From the NCBI GenBank assembly GCA_050945315.1, contig JBMNSS010000001.1, positions 1,620 to 65,619 of the forward strand: a DNA stretch of 64,000 nucleotides. The letters are read 5' to 3'. This stretch comes from Limnochordia bacterium (GTDB taxonomy: Bacteria > Bacillota > Limnochordia > DTU080). The notes beneath the pieces were generated by a model that ran no database searches, had not been told where the DNA came from, and saw only the letters and a program-made list of their open reading frames with translations. The position numbers were made by a program, and so were the translations under genes. Every line of letters starts with the position of its first letter. Within the stretch, counting starts at the first letter, position 1. Shown piece after piece: positions 11,086-49,337 of the stretch.

Positions 11086-12230
11086 AAGAGCTCAGTCAAC
11101 AATGACTCTGCATCAGACTGGCTCACTGACCGGGGATTGGCTCGGGTAGAACCGGAAGGCAGCGCAGCTGCAGCCAGCTCCGTAATATGCTCAGGAATCA
11201 TACCTGCATCCCGCAGATTGGCGGGAATCTCCATCTTTTCGTTGAGTTGCTCTATGAAATCAATCAAAGACTCGGCAGCACGTGGATCGTCCCTATCGGC
11301 CAATCCAATGGCCGCGGCCAACTCTGCGTACCCCTGTCGGGCAACCGCCAGGTTGAACCGCATGACGTGGGGAAGCAAGATCGCGCATGCTCTGCCGTGA
11401 GGAATCCCATAGCGAATTCCCACCGGATGAGCAAGACCGTGCACCAGCCCCAATCTGGCATTGGTCAAGGCCACACCGGCTAAGTAGCTGCCTACAGCCG
11501 TGTTGCGGCGCGCTGTTAAGTCTCGACCATTGCGATAGACCGTCATCAAGCTTTCGCTAAGCAGACTGGTGGCCTGACGAGATAGGGCTTGTGTCACGGG
11601 GGTGGCTCCGAGCGAGACATGAGATTCTATGGCTTGGGTCAAGGCGTCCATGCCGGAAGCGGCGGTGACGTGCGGAGGGGCTGTCACATAAAGCTTCGGA
11701 TCAATCAGCACCGCCTGTGCATACCATCGTTCGCAACGCATGCTTTGCTTGAGGCCCCTGACGGGGTCACTGAGTACGCTGACGTGAGTGGCCTCCGAAC
11801 CCGTGCCGGCAGTGGTCGGCACAGCAATCCAGGGCAAAGCCTGCACATCACGAGGCCCCCGATATAGAGCCTCTTCCACTACTGACTCAGGGTCTGCGGT
11901 GTGGTGAAAAAGCCCGGCGATACACTTGCCCATGTCTAAGACACTGCCGCCGCCGATGGCTATCAGCGATGAACAAGAAGCCGCGCGAGCCTGGGCTAAA
12001 CCTCGGGCACACTCACTCAAAGTGGGTTCGCCGCCAGGCCCTTCGATGATCATCGCTGCAATACCCGCTTCTTGCAGGTTTTTTCGCACCTGGTCGGCGA
12101 TACCGTTAGAGATAGTATGGCGTCCCGCCACCAATGCAGCGACAGGGCCCAACGGTCGCACCAGCTTATCAAGCGTAGCTAGGGCATCTTCACCGACCTG
12201 CAGTTTTGGGATGAACGAATGGTACCACAC
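11082..12230 (-). CDS. iron-containing (group III) alcohol dehydrogenase
   Basis: AIGGGSVLDMGKCIAG and downstream His-rich metal motifs. The start is trimmed to a GTG (12228-12230) preceded by GGAGGGG, which avoids overlap with the upstream MscS-like gene; this gives 382 aa. Confidence 0.85.
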   Translation of the reverse strand: MWYHSFIPKLQVGEDALATLDKLVRPLGPVAALVAGRHTISNGIADQVRKNLQEAGIAAMIIEGPGGEPTLSECARGLAQARAASCSSLIAIGGGSVLDMGKCIAGLFHHTADPESVVEEALYRGPRDVQALPWIAVPTTAGTGSEATHVSVLSDPVRGLKQSMRCERWYAQAVLIDPKLYVTAPPHVTAASGMDALTQAIESHVSLGATPVTQALSRQATSLLSESLMTVYRNGRDLTARRNTAVGSYLAGVALTNARLGLVHGLAHPVGIRYGIPHGRACAILLPHVMRFNLAVARQGYAELAAAIGLADRDDPRAAESLIDFIEQLNEKMEIPANLRDAGMIPEHITELAAAALPSGSTRANPRSVSQSDAESLLTELL

Positions 12231-12255
12231 GATACTACCCCTCCGCTCCGGTGGC

Positions 12256-12813
12256 TTAGCTTCTGCCTTCTTCTTTTTGACGAGCCTTTGGAGGGCCCTT
12301 CTCAACAATAGTATAGGTCGCCGCATCGATATTGCGGTTCGGTATGGCATAAATCAGGCCGTCTTTGTCTTTGACCTTTGTCTTGCGCATAGACAGACGG
12401 ATGATCTCACCCTCCACACCCGCCGCACGGACCCTGGCCCCAATGACAAAGTCGTCGTCTGACAACAGGTAGATGCCTGCCAGTAGATCCTGGGATACCG
12501 TGTTAAGTCCGGTGGCCAGGGCCATGGCGACCAAAGCCACTGACCCGCCCAGAGCCAGCGAGACCTGAGTCAAACCCAAAGCGTTGAGTGTTGCTGAGAT
12601 CCCGATGACCCAACCGACGAAGCTGACACTCGAAGAAAGCAATGATTTTGCGGTAGCTTCCAAGTGAGCCAAGCTTGCGGCCGCGGCGAAGACCCGTTTC
12701 ATTAATCTGATGAGAATATAGGTAGCAACTAGGGTAATAAGAGCGCCCGGAATTCGGACAACATAACTGACTGTCTGTTGCAGCAGTTCGTTTGTCCAAC
12801 TCATATCTGACAT
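12256..12813 (-). CDS. short MscS-family mechanosensitive channel protein
   Basis: 185 aa. TM helices plus the MscS TM3/beta-domain core (LGLTQVSLALGGSVALVAMALATG...VIGARVRAAGVEGEIIRLSMRKTKVKDKDGLIYAIPN). GGAGG Shine-Dalgarno before the ATG. Shorter than canonical MscS. Confidence 0.7.
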   Translation of the reverse strand: MSDMSWTNELLQQTVSYVVRIPGALITLVATYILIRLMKRVFAAAASLAHLEATAKSLLSSSVSFVGWVIGISATLNALGLTQVSLALGGSVALVAMALATGLNTVSQDLLAGIYLLSDDDFVIGARVRAAGVEGEIIRLSMRKTKVKDKDGLIYAIPNRNIDAATYTIVEKGPPKARQKEEGRS

Positions 12814-12855
12814 CTGTACGCCTCCAGAAACGAAGAGACTGTCGTGATCCCAAAT

Positions 12856-13056
12856 CTAAAACAGGTGACGAAACATGTCGAGATCACCGTACTTACGCAA
12901 GAGAAGTTGCCTTTCGATTCGCTCTATCCAGCTCAGACGTATCGCATACGCAAAAGCCGTCGGAGATATGGCCAACAGCAAGCCCAATACCGGCGCAAGC
13001 ATAGAAAGACAGATCCAGCGAAGCACCGTCCTTCTATACTGAGATTCTGCGATCAT
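12856..13056 (-). CDS. possible small membrane protein
   Basis: One predicted TM helix (WICLSMLAPVLGLLLAISPTAFAYAI). The start is trimmed to an internal Met so that it does not overlap the upstream terminator hairpin. Weak call. Confidence 0.3.
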   Translation of the reverse strand: MIAESQYRRTVLRWICLSMLAPVLGLLLAISPTAFAYAIRLSWIERIERQLLLRKYGDLDMFRHLF

Positions 13057-13100
13057 AGCTGTTAACACCTCAGGTGAACGCGGGCGTGCTTCGTGCCCTT

Positions 13101-13132
13101 GGGCAGCCCGGTCCGCAAAGCGCCCGGGCTGC
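13101..13132 (-). terminator. stem-loop downstream of the sugar-phosphate isomerase gene
   Basis: ggcagcccgg-12 nt-ccgggctgcc perfect 10-bp stem, 23 nt past the stop at 13155; no strong U-tract. Confidence 0.4.
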
Positions 13133-13154
13133 CTTGCAGAACACTTCAAAGAGG

Positions 13155-13922
13155 TCAGCTTAGTCCCATAGCTTTCAGATTACGCAAGCTGATAGCCAGA
13201 CTCTCGAACGGGTCGCGTTGACAGATATCCTGCTCCACGATATACCACTCGACACCGGCCTCGGCTGCAGCTGAAAGGATGCGTGGCCAATTGAGGTTGC
13301 CTTCACCGACTTCCGTCATTATCTGCTGACGATTGGCGATCCCCATGTCTTTCAGGTGCAAGAGCTTGATCCGGCCCTTCAGGTCGAGAATCCACTGTGC
13401 AGGATCTCCTCCGCCGTGTTGGATCCAATAAGTGTCGATCTCGCCCAAGAAGTACTCAGGATCGCTGTCTTCGTAGAGGATGGACAGAGCCGTACGCCCG
13501 TCGAATTTTTCCAGTTCGAAACTGTGATTGTGATAGCTCCATGTAAAGCCGTGCTCAGCAAGTTTTGCAGCTACCTGCGAGGCCTCCCGGGCAAATTCCG
13601 CATAGCCGGCGGCTCCCTTTTCTCTGTATGAGCCGGGCAACCCGCCTATGGCTAAATTGCGGCATCCCAGTATGCGATGCTCTTCCATAACCTCATCCAT
13701 ATTGTCTCGCATTCGTTCATAACCGGTATGCGTGGCACAGACCTCCAGGTTTGCGTCGTCGAGCAACTTACGAAGTTCCTCAGGGTCAATCGGCCCATGC
13801 CCGGAGAGCTGAACCGCCTCCCAACCCATCTCGCGAATTTTCTTCAATGAAACCGCCATGTCTTCAGGTGTCTTCATGAACTGCCTGATCGTGTAGAGCT
13901 GTGCCGCCAATTTGGTTGCCAT
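13155..13922 (-). CDS. sugar phosphate isomerase/epimerase (xylose-isomerase-like TIM barrel)
   Basis: MATKLAAQLYTIRQF... is a typical AP-endonuclease-2/TIM-barrel-family N-terminus, with conserved E/H metal ligands. The start is set at a Met preceded by GGGAGGAG. Confidence 0.8.
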   Translation of the reverse strand: MATKLAAQLYTIRQFMKTPEDMAVSLKKIREMGWEAVQLSGHGPIDPEELRKLLDDANLEVCATHTGYERMRDNMDEVMEEHRILGCRNLAIGGLPGSYREKGAAGYAEFAREASQVAAKLAEHGFTWSYHNHSFELEKFDGRTALSILYEDSDPEYFLGEIDTYWIQHGGGDPAQWILDLKGRIKLLHLKDMGIANRQQIMTEVGEGNLNWPRILSAAAEAGVEWYIVEQDICQRDPFESLAISLRNLKAMGLS

Positions 13923-44494: not shown

Positions 44495-44523
44495 ATTGTA
44501 AAACAATAACCCTAGCTAGTCAA
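44495..44523 (-). promoter_or_regulatory. putative sigma-A promoter of rplM-rpsI with a ~120-nt leader
   Basis: Minus strand: TTGACT, 17 nt, TACAAT. The long 5' leader before the rplM Shine-Dalgarno is consistent with an L13-leader autoregulatory element. Confidence 0.45.
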
Positions 44524-44575: not shown

Positions 44576-45880
44576 TCAAGACAGCTTCCTGAGCAGTCTA
44601 ACGGAAGCGGCAACAATAAGATCTCCGGCCTCGGGTGCGGAGCGGCTGCCGCGACACAGAGTAGGCTCATAGCCGCCTTTTTCAATGGCCTCAGCCGTAG
44701 GTACGTAGCCGATGTTGCCATTGGCCAACGAGACCACCATCGTTGCCGGAAACGGCGAGTTCTGCTTGATGTCCAGCCCAAGGGCACAGAACTTCTGACC
44801 CGGACTTGATGCGATCGCCAATCCACCCAGACGCAAACAGATGATCTCACAGCGCGCCGTCCCATGCTCTTCTATGTACTCCTGCAGCTGCAATCGTTCG
44901 CGGGCAAAGACAACCTCGCGAGAGTAATCGTCGGGCGAAGCCGCCTGTACTGTGATTCTGTCTTGTGCCAGTTGCTCTACGTCGGGCTTGCGGAACGGGA
45001 TGTCGATTATCTCTGAGGCGACCTCCAAGGGTGTATCATCGGCGAAAGGCATATCGGCCAGCAGTTTTAGCGATTCACCGGTCAGCTTGCTTGCAAAGCG
45101 TCTGATCACCGGCTCTCCCTTCTGCGGGTGCGCAAAACCCTTATCGCGATTGACTTGCGTGACATCTCCCATGGCTCCGTTCAAAAAGACCAAGGGTGCT
45201 CCTGTGACGTGCTGAAGCTGATCGCTCCAGGCACCCGGGTAGTCAGCGGAAAAGGCTCTGCCTCCCCTCAGGGTGCAGTGACAGGTGAAATTGCCTACAA
45301 AACCGAGCATATGTCCATCAAGATCACGTGCGGCCAGCAAGATCACTTGTGGATCATCAGGACCGGCACGCCCGATGACCGCCTCGTCGTCAGGATTCGC
45401 ATGAGTAGCATGAGTGCCGTCTTTCAGCACCCAACGACGATTCCAGGCCAAACCCGATGCCTCTCCTACCGCCCACCCCAACTCACAGGGCACACATCTC
45501 GCATGAGCCAGGGCAACGGCGCTTGCGATCTGTTGGATAATATGCTGTCTGTAGTGATCGTTTGAATCCGTGCCCAGTACGTCGTTGGCCGGTCCTCCGG
45601 TGTGCGTGTGACTGGCGGCAATGACGATATTGGCACTCGGAACAGCGCACAGAGCTTCCGCTTGTTGACGAGCCTCAAGCACGTCTTCAGTCGACAAAGA
45701 GACCGCATCAACACCAACGATAGCCAAAGCTGTGTCCTCGTTACGAATCACTGCAGCACGGGCTCGCAGAGGATCGTTTACACCGGTTGAAGCGATGGGA
45801 GAGAAACCACCGGGAATATGAGCACCTACTGGCGGGGTTATGTCGGTAACGGCAAAACCTGCCTCAATCATCAATATCAC
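44576..45880 (-). CDS. neutral/alkaline ceramidase-like N-terminal-domain protein
   Basis: N-terminal block GAHIPGGFSPIASTGVNDPLRARAAVI...IVIAASHTHTGGP typical of the Ceramidase_alk family; translationally coupled to truA (ATGA overlap). Confidence 0.65.
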   Translation of the reverse strand: MILMIEAGFAVTDITPPVGAHIPGGFSPIASTGVNDPLRARAAVIRNEDTALAIVGVDAVSLSTEDVLEARQQAEALCAVPSANIVIAASHTHTGGPANDVLGTDSNDHYRQHIIQQIASAVALAHARCVPCELGWAVGEASGLAWNRRWVLKDGTHATHANPDDEAVIGRAGPDDPQVILLAARDLDGHMLGFVGNFTCHCTLRGGRAFSADYPGAWSDQLQHVTGAPLVFLNGAMGDVTQVNRDKGFAHPQKGEPVIRRFASKLTGESLKLLADMPFADDTPLEVASEIIDIPFRKPDVEQLAQDRITVQAASPDDYSREVVFARERLQLQEYIEEHGTARCEIICLRLGGLAIASSPGQKFCALGLDIKQNSPFPATMVVSLANGNIGYVPTAEAIEKGGYEPTLCRGSRSAPEAGDLIVAASVRLLRKLS

Positions 45881-46650
45881 CTCGCGGGATCGTTGTTGTG
45901 TGTGTCTGCGTCATCATAGACGACCTCCAGAAGACACAGCCCCAATCCGGGCACCGTCGGACCTGCCAAGTGACGCTGTCCGCTCATGAGGACTTCCTTA
46001 ACCCATTTCGGTGGTTGTTTGGACTTCCCTACCTCCAAGAGCGTGCCGACAATAATGCGCATCATATTGTACAGGAAGCCATCAGCACACGCCGTTATGT
46101 GGATCATGTCTCCGCAGCGCTCAACTCGCAATTCATACAGGGTGCGGACGGTAGTCTCCACTTCGCTGCCCACCGAACGAAAGGCCGCAAAATCATGCTT
46201 TCCTTCGAGCCATGAGGCGGCCTCAGACATAGCTTTGACATCGAGAGTACGATACACTCGATAAGCATAGCGTCGCATAAAGACGCAAGGCACGGGTCCG
46301 TTGTCAATCACATATTGATAGCGTTTCTTCGTCGCCCAGTATTGAGAGTGAAAATCAGGATGTACGACGCTGGCATCACGTACTACTATGTCTCGTGCCA
46401 ATACAGAATTGAGTGCGTGAGGCCAGCGTTCAACGGGGATCGTCCCGGATGTACGTATGTTGATGACTTGGCCCAGAGCGTGCACCCCGGCATCTGTACG
46501 CCCGGCGCCGATGACCCGCAAGCGTTCTCCGGTCAGTTTGTGGATTGCGGTCTCCAGTGACCTTTGAACAGTCGGCACATCGGGCCCTTGATCTTGAAAA
46601 CCGTGATAGGCGGTCCCATCATATGAGAGTGTCATCTTTATGTTGCGCAT
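45877..46650 (-). CDS. truA: tRNA pseudouridine(38-40) synthase
   Basis: MTLSYDGTAYHGFQ...RTDAGVHALGQV (catalytic Asp). Confidence 0.9.
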   Translation of the reverse strand: MRNIKMTLSYDGTAYHGFQDQGPDVPTVQRSLETAIHKLTGERLRVIGAGRTDAGVHALGQVINIRTSGTIPVERWPHALNSVLARDIVVRDASVVHPDFHSQYWATKKRYQYVIDNGPVPCVFMRRYAYRVYRTLDVKAMSEAASWLEGKHDFAAFRSVGSEVETTVRTLYELRVERCGDMIHITACADGFLYNMMRIIVGTLLEVGKSKQPPKWVKEVLMSGQRHLAGPTVPGLGLCLLEVVYDDADTHNNDPAR

Positions 46651-46663
46651 CAGCATCACCTAC

Positions 46664-48823
46664 TCATAGCAGTGCTGAAGCGACCGTGAGAAACAGAGCC
46701 ATGGCTAACACTAACAAGTCCTGGCTCCCCAACGCCTGTTGCTTCTCCTCGGTTCGGTGCGCTCCATAACCGCGCATCACCAGAGCCTCGGCCAAAGCAT
46801 CCGCTCGGCGCCACACACCTGCCAGGAGCGGAATCACTAGAGTAACCAATCTGCGATAGAGACCAATGAACCCCGTCTGCAAGTTAGCGCCCCGGGCGGC
46901 TTGGGCCAGTTGTAGCCATGTGGCTTCCGTTCTTACGATAGGTACGAAACGAAAGGCGATCAAGATACCCATACCGAGGCGATCGGGATCAACTCCGGGG
47001 ATCCGGCGCAGCAAGTGGCGAAGACCCCGTACCAAATGATCGGGCTTCGTAGACAATGTCAGCCAACCTACGCTGCTTATCAGCAAAAGCATCTTGGCCG
47101 CCGACCATAGAACCGCATGCAACGTCCCCGTATAATATCTCCAGCTGCCCAGTGTGAAAAGCAGATGCCCCCCGTCTCCCTCGCTGCTAAGCAAGACGGC
47201 AAGACAGGCCAGAGGAAGAAAAGGGCGTATGAAGCGGAAGAAGGACCTCACAGACACCCCCATCAGTCCATAGATCAAGATGAGGCCCCCCGCGGCAATA
47301 GCCAGGGCTTGCCAATCGCCGACAAGTGTAGCCGCTAGGGTCAGGAGGCCGGCAGCCAGGATCTTAGTCCGCGGATCCAGATCGGCGAGCAGGCAAGACC
47401 GGGCATTCTGCATCGCGGTACTTGTGGCGGGTGGCGGGATCCTATCCTCATCACGTAGCACTCGGTGTTCATCAGCCCACTTATCTACGAACTCCTGATC
47501 GTGGGTGGCAACACAACAAGATGCTCCGGTGATCCGAAGATAGTGATCGATGCCACTCATGAGTTGCATGGCAGCCCCCCTATGAAGGCCGACAGTAGGC
47601 TCATCGAGAAAAAAGCAGGGTGTTCCGGCGGCCAAGACAGACGCCAAAACCACCAACCGCTGCTCACCGCCACTCAGAGAAAAGGGATTGCGGCAGCCCA
47701 CGGTCTCGGGATCCAGACCGACACAGCGCAAAGCCATAGCAGCCATCTGCCGGGCTTCTGACCGCGGTCTGCCCAGGTTAAGAGGGGCATACATCACTTC
47801 ATTCCATACTGTATCTGCAAATATCTGTCGCTCCGGATGTTGCAGGGCCATGCTGACTTGACTCTGCAGCCAACGTCTGTCGGCAGCGGTCGCGATCCTC
47901 CGCTCTCCGTAGCACAACACACCGCGCTCCGTCGGCAACAGGCCCGCCAAACGAAGAAGAAGAGTGCTCTTGCCAACCCCGGATTTGCCGACAATAGCCA
48001 TCTTAGATCCAGGCGGAATGACTATCGACAGATCCTGCCCACATGATTCTCCATCCTGCGATGATCCGGAAAGCTCCAGACGCAACTGAGAAGGGGCGCA
48101 TCCAGGTTGGCAGCCACTTGATGCTTCAGGCCAGGGACTTGGGCGATCGCACAGCACCTCAGTAACTGTGGGTGCAGATAAAACATCCTTCGGGTCTCCC
48201 TGAGCGATGATTCGACCTTTTCGAACAGCTACGCTATGAGTGGCTAAGCCAGCTTCGCTGAGGTTGTGAGTGATGTAGATGACCGCAAGATCATAGGTAG
48301 CCATGACCTCCCGAAGTGTCTTGAGAAACAGCTGACGACACTCGTCATCCAGCATACTGGTGGGCTCATCCAGAACCAGCAATGAAGGTCGCATGGCCAA
48401 CAGCCCGGCCAGTACCACCCTTTGACACTCCCCCCCCGATAGACAAAGCGGGTCGCGCTCCATATACGTGGCGTCCAAACCGACTGCTTCCAGGCTTTCC
48501 GTCACACGGACCTCCAGCTCCACTCCGCTCAGGCCATGATTGGCGGGACCAAAGGCAACATCTTCGCCCACCGTTGAGGCTACGATAGAGTTGGTAGCAT
48601 CTTGAGACATCCAACCCAAGCAAAGGCCCTCTTGTCGGTAGATCTCTCCCTCAACCGGTGCCAGCAGTCCGGCAACTAGGCGACCCAAGGTCGACTTGCC
48701 GCTACCAGAGGGCCCAACTACGCTGACCCACTCTCCGCGTTTGACTTCTAAGCTCACGTCGGACAACGCCGGCTGTGGCGAATCCGGATAGCCGAAGGAT
48801 ACGTTTTGCAGGCGTACAAGCAA
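46664..48823 (-). CDS. ecfA: ECF transporter energizing module fused in one polypeptide: EcfA1-EcfA2-EcfT
   Basis: Two complete ABC ATPase domains (Walker A GPSGSGKST and GKSGVGKST; signatures LSGGECQRV and LSGGEQRLV; Walker B LLVLDEPT and FFLDEPT). A C-terminal ~240-aa EcfT/CbiQ-like TM domain begins LDPRTKIL. One uninterrupted frame of 719 aa. Confidence 0.8.
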   Translation of the reverse strand: MLVRLQNVSFGYPDSPQPALSDVSLEVKRGEWVSVVGPSGSGKSTLGRLVAGLLAPVEGEIYRQEGLCLGWMSQDATNSIVASTVGEDVAFGPANHGLSGVELEVRVTESLEAVGLDATYMERDPLCLSGGECQRVVLAGLLAMRPSLLVLDEPTSMLDDECRQLFLKTLREVMATYDLAVIYITHNLSEAGLATHSVAVRKGRIIAQGDPKDVLSAPTVTEVLCDRPSPWPEASSGCQPGCAPSQLRLELSGSSQDGESCGQDLSIVIPPGSKMAIVGKSGVGKSTLLLRLAGLLPTERGVLCYGERRIATAADRRWLQSQVSMALQHPERQIFADTVWNEVMYAPLNLGRPRSEARQMAAMALRCVGLDPETVGCRNPFSLSGGEQRLVVLASVLAAGTPCFFLDEPTVGLHRGAAMQLMSGIDHYLRITGASCCVATHDQEFVDKWADEHRVLRDEDRIPPPATSTAMQNARSCLLADLDPRTKILAAGLLTLAATLVGDWQALAIAAGGLILIYGLMGVSVRSFFRFIRPFLPLACLAVLLSSEGDGGHLLFTLGSWRYYTGTLHAVLWSAAKMLLLISSVGWLTLSTKPDHLVRGLRHLLRRIPGVDPDRLGMGILIAFRFVPIVRTEATWLQLAQAARGANLQTGFIGLYRRLVTLVIPLLAGVWRRADALAEALVMRGYGAHRTEEKQQALGSQDLLVLAMALFLTVASALL

Positions 48824-48858: not shown

Positions 48859-48895
48859 CAAAAACGGAAAAGGAGCGCGTAGAACCCCGCGCCCC
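48859..48895 (-). terminator. rho-independent terminator after rplQ
   Basis: Minus strand: ggggcgcg-8 nt-cgcgcucc stem, then UUUUCCGUUUUUG, 25 nt past the rplQ stop. Confidence 0.6.
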
Positions 48896-48919
48896 TGCCC
48901 AGTTAAGCGGCGGCAAATA

Positions 48920-49258
48920 CTACACCAATTCGACCAGGGCGATAGGTGCAGCGTCACCACGACGGACTCCAAGCTTAAGCACACGGGTGTATCCCCCGTT
49001 GCGTTCGGTGTACCTTGGGGCCACCTCGTCAAACAACTTCTGAACTGCTTCAGGCTTAGTCAAGAAAGCGGCTGCCTGTCGTCGAGCATGTAGATCGCCG
49101 CGTTTTCCCAAGGTAATCATCTTATCTACCAAAGGTTTGACCGCCTTGGCTTTACTCTCGGTGGTCTGTATTCTTCCGTTCATTACCACCGCAGTTACCA
49201 GGCTGCGGAAAAGGGCACGCCTGTGGGCCTGGGTCCGGCCCAGCTTGTGCTGCCTCAT
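48920..49258 (-). CDS. rplQ: 50S ribosomal protein L17
   Basis: [20 protein letters not shown]...; start at the Met preceded by GGGAGG. Confidence 0.95.
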
Positions 49259-49337
49259 ACAAGAAACCTCCCAGCAAACCGTAGTCACATAAGGCCTCAC
49301 GGCGAACCATCTTCCTGCCGAGCCTTTTTCGAAAAGC

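Follow-up and report, generated by a model that had tools for sequence, protein, structure and literature searches.

A predicted single-chain ECF energizing module, EcfA1-EcfA2-EcfT, in the rplQ-truA slot of a Limnochordia bacterium

Work on energy-coupling factor (ECF) transporters considers them both as targets for antibiotics and for the unusual toppling mechanism they use. Their stand-alone ATPases, EcfA and EcfA', carry two C-terminal helices each, and these assemble into a four-helix bundle on dimerisation (PMC4245157). In the literature searched, which did not extend to Rodionov et al. 2009 (J Bacteriol 191:42), reviews give fusions of the two ATPases (A1-A2) only, and no fusion of both ATPases with the membrane component EcfT (A-A-T) was described. 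Here we analysed a 64,000-nt stretch (the window) of contig JBMNSS010000001.1 from a Limnochordia bacterium (GCA_050945315.1), in which a single gene stands where ecfA1, ecfA2 and ecfT would be expected. An earlier note, made from the letters of this DNA, had read the gene as one uninterrupted 719-codon frame holding two full ATP-binding cassette (ABC) ATPase domains with their own motif sets, followed by an EcfT/CbiQ-type domain beginning with LDPRTK. These three readings were borne out, and the junctions it had placed at ~47.4 kb and ~48.1 kb fall in the two interdomain linkers (Table 1). We consider it highly probable that the 719-aa product makes up the complete energizing module of a type III ABC (ECF) importer, and that the fusion is genuine and selectively maintained.

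Pfam matched ABC_tran twice in the protein (E = 8.6e-46) and CbiQ over residues 479-690 (E = 4.7e-26; 92.2 bits against a cut-off of 25; profile positions 5-213 of 216). Both nucleotide-binding domains (NBDs) carry the full series of ABC ATPase elements: Walker A (GPSGSGKS at residue 37 in NBD1, GKSGVGKS at 279 in NBD2), a Q-loop, the signature LSGGE (at 128 and 383), Walker B LDEP with its catalytic Glu (150-154 and 405-409) and an H-loop (His186 and His441). The segment between Walker A and the Q-loop of NBD1 is ~15 aa shorter than usual. EcfA1 chains were the best PDB sequence matches of the fusion (E = 2e-42), its top NCBIfam matches were ECF_ATPase_2 and ECF_ATPase_1, and its score for TIGR01166 (cbiO subfamily) exceeded the cut-off (228.6 against 211.8).

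The T domain, which opens with its LDPRTK motif at residues 482-487, combines CbiQ membership with an N-terminal transmembrane (TM) bundle and long coupling helices bearing the two X-Arg-X motifs typical of EcfT/CbiQ proteins, FRF at 624-626 and ARG at 643-645 (second coupling helix). By sequence it matches the EcfT chains 4hzu_T and 4huq_T at E of ~7e-18 (best 6.5e-18), and also 5D3M; the motifs A(L/F)RF(V/I)P and ARG align between the T domain and these chains.

The fusion protein is identical to NCBI MGI6081279.1 from a Limnochordia metagenome-assembled genome (MAG). A Logan contig assembled independently (L103, SRR31066337) matches the window at 100% identity along 3,551 bp, a span that takes in the entire open reading frame (ORF; 2,160 nt). 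Three further lineages, P0002 (77% identity), P0003 (62%) and P0004 (59%), found in at least five samples (SRR15686344, SRR15686337, SRR31128747, SRR31061296 and JGI 3300065966), keep one uninterrupted frame in the same rpoA-rplQ-[gene]-truA slot, so that the orthologous loci to which the earlier note had pointed as a check agree with the window. Among the four fused sequences, 49-59% of columns are invariant in the domains and 4-5% in the linkers (5% at the linker 1 region, residues 217-268; 4% at the linker 2 region, residues 458-481), and the linker indels are codon multiples that preserve the frame. The ratio of nonsynonymous to synonymous substitution rates (dN/dS, Nei-Gojobori), computed against two orthologues at dS of ~1-1.6, was 0.095-0.154 in NBD1, NBD2 and the T domain and 0.54-1.29 in linker 1. 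Neither a pseudogene nor a frameshift artefact can give rise to such a pattern of conservation and dN/dS. The fusion is real and conserved, purifying selection acts on it, and its motif set is intact.

The AlphaFold2 (AF2) model of the fusion, built from a 55-sequence alignment, reached a mean predicted local distance difference test score (pLDDT) of 87.4 and a predicted TM-score (pTM) of 0.83. Linker 1 showed no secondary structure along its whole length, with a block-mean pLDDT of 56 for residues 231-240; pLDDT fell below 50 at residues 466-476 of linker 2 and in a loop at the start of NBD2 (255-262). The T domain was modelled as TM1-4 (484-591), three coupling helices (594-605, 613-643 and 652-683) and TM5 (700-718). 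In a Foldseek search, the best whole-chain match of the NBD1-NBD2 pair was the ATP-bound DppD of Mycobacterium tuberculosis (8wdb_D, TMt 0.76), and from superposition on this chain the pair is predicted to adopt the canonical closed head-to-tail dimer.

The protein is the most compact A-A-T version retrieved: at 719 aa, against ~843 aa for the concatenated unfused sets in the alignment, it is ~124 aa shorter. The distance from Walker B of A1 to Walker A of A2 is 131-136 aa in the window clade, 154-163 aa in unfused sets (leaving aside a value of 122 aa for L006, a probable artefact of the motif expression) and 138-186 aa in other A-A-T fusions. From Walker B of A2 to the DPR motif of T it is 69-78 aa, 133-146 aa and 84-96 aa, respectively, the last range covering those of the other A-A-T fusions in which DPR was located. 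Beyond the NBD1 core one short helix (218-225) is left, and linker 1 stands in for ~25-30 aa of EcfA1 tail together with the intercistronic junction. NBD2, as read from local alignment and AF2 secondary structure, ends directly past the strand EHRVL (452-456); beyond it, neither the last strand of the core nor any of the helical tail (~65-75 aa) is left. The T domain is without the usual 12-15 N-terminal residues. The two C-terminal helices per ATPase subunit that characterise EcfA and EcfA' are absent from the fusion; with most or all C-terminal helices missing from the predicted chain, the four-helix bundle cannot form. These tail deletions, which the earlier note did not notice, are structurally the more interesting feature of the protein than the fusion itself.

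A further peculiarity concerns the D-loop of NBD2, which reads GLH (His414, 47582-47584, minus strand) in place of GLD. His414 is invariant in all four fused orthologues, and the position is Asp in unfused relatives (L091, L094, L006 and others). With this substitution the two ATP sites might no longer be functionally equivalent.

By homology to solved ECF complexes, NBD1 and NBD2 would pair as the usual head-to-tail ATP sandwich, with the two long coupling helices of T, each with its conserved Arg motif, seated in the grooves of the two NBDs. ATP-driven closure would be relayed to a separately encoded S-component docked on the T domain, which would topple and release its vitamin or metal substrate. 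The covalent linkage would fix a 1:1:1 stoichiometry, and the tether probably replaces the lost non-covalent interface between the ATPase tails, a step that is weakened by the locus L094 described below. The transport function, the S-component partners and the compensation for the lost tails are inferred.

The gene might be fused while its subunits are made or released separately, through internal initiation (e.g., at Met471 or Leu247) or proteolysis of the linkers. We regard this as unlikely. Disorder is predicted for both linkers, whose evolution is close to neutral; a TTG or GTG codon persists at the position of the ancestral A2 start in the window and in L001; and a separately called protein of 249 aa (P0271), identical to residues 471-719, begins exactly at Met471. 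However, no conserved Shine-Dalgarno sequence with a start codon was found at either junction in the window, L001 or L003, and Met471 is itself not conserved, being Val in P0002 and replaced by a different sequence in P0003. Free subunits would also be less tolerant of losing the dimerising tails and the T N-terminus. Internal initiation is therefore not supported by the sequences compared, while linker proteolysis is possible.

The origin of the single chain was approached through its nearest relatives. Among 1.84 billion cluster representatives, the closest relatives of the T domain are stand-alone EcfTs of 256-264 aa, and in the three of their loci that were fetched (L090, L091 and L095) EcfT lies directly upstream of truA. 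L091 encodes separate A1 (273 aa), A2 (283 aa) and T (256 aa), with T overlapping A2 by 4 nt; it is 38-40% identical to the window fusion, and the unusually short Walker A-Q-loop segment of NBD1 is common to both. At L092-L094 (5288-7560), which include the Bacillota MAG GCA_012840225.1 with protein HHW10579.1 (P0125), a stand-alone A1 of 234-238 aa that lacks its tail shares a 4-nt overlap with a 519-aa A2-T fusion, in the same rplQ-truA slot. Any two of the three states, fully separate, half-fused and fully fused, differ to about the same degree (38-41% identity); they show what a route could look like without proving the order of its steps.

Along such a route, an ancestral ecfA1-ecfA2-ecfT operon in the rplQ-truA slot of the Limnochordia lineage would have undergone in-frame deletions at both cistron boundaries, yielding one polypeptide of ~79 kDa. 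The alternative, horizontal acquisition of a Bifidobacterium-type A-A-T family member that replaced the native operon, appears very unlikely. Many collinear A-A-T proteins exist, with 28-31% identity over the full length, and the A2 tail is shortened in the Bifidobacterium-type proteins as well. However, the T domain is clearly closer to unfused Bacillota slot EcfTs (78-88 bits, 40-43% identity) than to its counterparts in other fusions (≤63 bits), a specific NBD1 deletion is shared with unfused L091, the half-fused state is present in the same slot, and the Bifidobacterium-type genes adjoin an S-component gene elsewhere in the genome. The fusion arose in place, and these sequence comparisons favour a local independent event over acquisition. 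It is quite possible, and we propose it tentatively, that in a small Limnochordia clade a single-chain ECF module of minimal form evolved separately from the actinobacterial fusions, passing from separate A1, A2 and T through a tail-less A1 beside A2-T to A1-A2-T, and that this module dispenses with the four-helix bundle and operates with an asymmetric D-loop.

Several observations weigh against reading the protein as an intact and genuinely single-chain module. Its scores fall just below both equivalog cut-offs (TIGR04521, 325.7 against 330; TIGR04520, 297.3 against 315), and the two matches are confined to profile positions 2-237 of 279. The site contacted by the NBD2 D-loop is only presumed to be ATPase-competent, given His for Asp and the loss of the last core strand. 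No S-component gene was found in the 64-kb window, in which the other multi-TM ORFs are a 12-TM protein and SecY only. A module gene in the rplQ-truA housekeeping slot, with no S-component-like multi-TM ORF in the 64 kb, corresponds to the first half of the group II ECF definition, the other half of which is a set of several S-components dispersed over the genome; in view of the missing ORF the fusion most likely serves S-components encoded elsewhere, and the sole indication of its use as a shared module is the position of the gene.

Among further points on the same side, P0271 was called separately on a 2,432,881-bp NCBI contig, and behind this call there may be an indel, a gene called differently or, in that genome, a truly split allele. 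One contig of the P0003 cluster is frameshifted (P0273 and P0278), with the frameshift inside the NBD2 core, away from the domain borders. Finally, the free-standing A1 of L094 is already tail-less. Tail loss consequently does not strictly require a covalent A1-A2 linkage, and the idea that it depended on the A1-A2 tether is weakened. As a separate observation, P0271 comes from another assembly of apparently the same organism.

A decaying, non-functional remnant, whose ATPase truncations would mark a module on its way to loss, is also very improbable. NBD2 has lost its terminal strand and tail and its D-loop Asp, the NBD1 beta-subdomain is shortened, and no S-component is seen nearby; against this, the catalytic motifs are complete in both NBDs, both coupling-helix Arg motifs are intact, purifying selection has been strong over dS of ~1-1.6, the AF2 model is confident, and similar tail shortening occurs in other A-A-T fusions (84-96 aa from Walker B of A2 to DPR). 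The earlier note had itself raised a sequencing or assembly frameshift artefact, with errors removing two stops between truly separate cistrons, and this is rejected as extremely improbable: three cistrons do occupy the slot in most Bacillota and another assembly calls the T part as a protein of its own, but the independent assembly (SRR31066337) is identical, the frame is kept with in-frame indels across four diverged lineages (59-78% identity; at least five samples), simple read-through does not account for the junctions, where ~25-30 and 65-75 codons have been lost compared with unfused relatives, and dN/dS stays at ~0.1-0.15 downstream of both junctions.

Table 1. Features of the fusion gene and its surroundings (positions in the window)
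Feature	Position	Strand	Description
ecfA1-ecfA2-ecfT fusion, whole ORF	46664-48823	-	719 aa; TTG start; stop codon 46664-46666
NBD1, EcfA1-like	48149-48823	-	residues 1-225; all catalytic motifs
Linker 1	48086-48148	-	residues 226-246; Pro/Gly/Ser/Cys-rich; predicted disordered
NBD2, EcfA2-like	47444-48085	-	residues 247-460; all catalytic motifs
Linker 2, NBD2 to TM1 of T	47381-47443	-	residues 461-481; Pro-rich; predicted disordered; contains Met471
EcfT/CbiQ domain	46667-47380	-	residues 482-719; CbiQ match, AF2 helices
rplQ (L17), upstream neighbour	48920-49300	-	mechanically listed ORF; 126 aa; GTG start
truA, downstream neighbour	45877-46659	-	start 5 nt past the fusion stop codon
Ceramidase_alk-like gene	44576-45880	-	434 aa; between truA and rplM-rpsI; overlaps truA by 4 nt
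Terminator-like hairpin and TTTTCCGTTTT	48861-48896	-	hairpin 48896-48871; consensus scan only

The gene order around the fusion is rpsM-rpsK-rpsD-rpoA-rplQ-[fusion]-truA. Of the rplQ-ecf-truA-rplM slot proposed in the earlier note, the rplQ and truA flanks were confirmed, whereas truA and rplM are separated by the ceramidase-like gene. This gene is context only, outside the ECF module. Its N-terminal Ceramidase_alk match is weak (32.4 bits against a cut-off of 32.1); it is also found in the orthologous loci L003-L005 and L103, and is absent from L090, which has truA-rplM-rpsI, as well as from L092-L094, in which truA is followed by an RNase H gene. The orthologues of rplQ are called at 112 aa in L097 and L100 (contigs with an identical rpoA protein), 14 aa shorter than the listed ORF, in which Pfam matches L17 from residue 30 onwards; rplQ probably starts near 49258.

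The terminator-like hairpin, between the rplQ stop and the fusion start, is a strong one, having a 9-bp stem with 7 G-C pairs and a T-run after it. A consensus scan found no promoter-like site in the remainder of the rplQ-fusion gap past the hairpin. In view of these two results, expression of ecf-truA may depend on terminator read-through. The best promoter-like site of the region (TTGACT-17-TACAAT, 44495-44523, minus strand) lies just upstream of rplM. No Rfam family reached its gathering score on either strand of positions 40000-64000, and no ribosomal-protein leader was detected in the ribosomal cluster.

The rarity of the layout depends on where it is sought. In the slot, a T-ATPase fusion was seen in none of ~44 Bacillota loci with EcfT among the rpoA-anchored matches listed, none of which exceeds 75% rpoA identity and which probably leave out the close Limnochordia genomes and the organism's own species representative. 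Among the 150 nearest T-domain cluster representatives, two are triple fusions: the fused clade forms a single 50%-identity cluster, and the other 149 include 140 stand-alone proteins of ≤300 aa, three A-T fusions and one A-A-T. Elsewhere in public data the architecture is numerous. Collinear A-A-T proteins make up 37 of the best 120 full-length database homologues, including proteins from Bifidobacterium and Zhihengliuella and many metagenomic ones (771-885 aa), and one of them, P0008, is named in IMG as an 'energy-coupling factor transport system permease/ATP-binding protein'. The view that an A-A'-T fusion is uncommon is true of the slot and needs this qualification. To judge from these entries, the A-A-T architecture is already in databases and apparently uncharacterised, as far as could be checked. 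New here is a fusion in place in the shared-module ribosomal slot, unusually compact and independently evolved.

The locus survey yielded some further observations. In L041, a Eubacteriales MAG, the same slot holds an EcfA1-EcfA2 fusion (11514-13523, ~670 aa stop-to-stop) and, after it, EcfT as a gene of its own. Rossellomorea sp. AcN35-11 (complete genome; L021, 12444-13317) has ecfA2 split into two ORFs of 166 and 158 aa stop-to-stop, which suggests a frameshift or pseudogene. Two loci labelled 'Candidatus Bathyarchaeia archaeon' (L016) and 'Lutibacter sp. B2' (L085) are of the Bacillota type at rpoA, with 69% and 65% rpoA identity to the window, and L016 also carries ecfA1-ecfA2-ecfT; in both assemblies these contigs are probably contaminants.

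A natural single-chain module fixes the A:A':T stoichiometry and would simplify expression for biochemistry and cryo-EM. It also offers a natural experiment on whether the four-helix bundle is needed for the catalytic cycle or for assembly only. If the proposal is true, the bundle would be mainly an assembly device, replaceable by covalent linkage or by anchoring to T, and the protein would provide a compact, naturally stoichiometric scaffold for structural and engineering work on ECF transporters. The three organisational states in one slot give a clean example of stepwise fusion among translationally coupled cistrons with 4-nt overlaps. In practical terms the significance is moderate, as the architecture is already in public databases and there is no sign of a new transport principle.

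Compared with the canonical group II EcfA-EcfA'-EcfT modules of Lactobacillales (PDB 4HUQ, 4HZU, 4RFS, 5JSZ, 5D3M and 8BMP, among others), the window protein has the same domains in the same order and the same rplQ-ecf-truA slot. The NBD cores are alike, with single NBDs superposing on EcfA chains at 1.6-2.0 Å and 34-37% identity, and the T domain aligns with EcfT of the L. brevis and L. delbrueckii complexes, both Arg motifs being present. In contrast to these modules, it is one polypeptide rather than three and is shorter overall by the ~124 aa given above; it is without most or all bundle helices, the last NBD2 strand and the 12-15 N-terminal residues of EcfT, and its NBD2 D-loop has His where the canonical one has Asp.

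The Bifidobacterium-type fusions, represented by P0012 (B. commune, 811 aa), P0005 (885 aa) and an ENA group of 771-785 aa, resemble the window protein in their collinear A-A-T single chain and shortened A2 tail (84-96 aa there). They are 28-31% identical to it, 50-165 aa longer, and keep 40-75 aa between the NBDs. In both loci examined, an S-component gene stands immediately upstream and forms a dedicated pair with the fusion gene, outside the ribosomal slot. Their T domain is more distant from that of the window than unfused Bacillota EcfTs are, which points to an independent origin.

The tandem NBDs of M. tuberculosis DppD/OppD (PDB 8WDB and 8J5R), which gave the best whole-chain structural match for the NBD pair, belong to another ABC importer class (type I), have no EcfT-type fused membrane domain and are 22-26% identical. 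Partial ECF fusions, namely A1-A2 (reviews and L041) and A2-T (HHW10579.1, L092-L094), occupy the same slot with the same domain families. These join two of the three domains, and the window protein completes the series.

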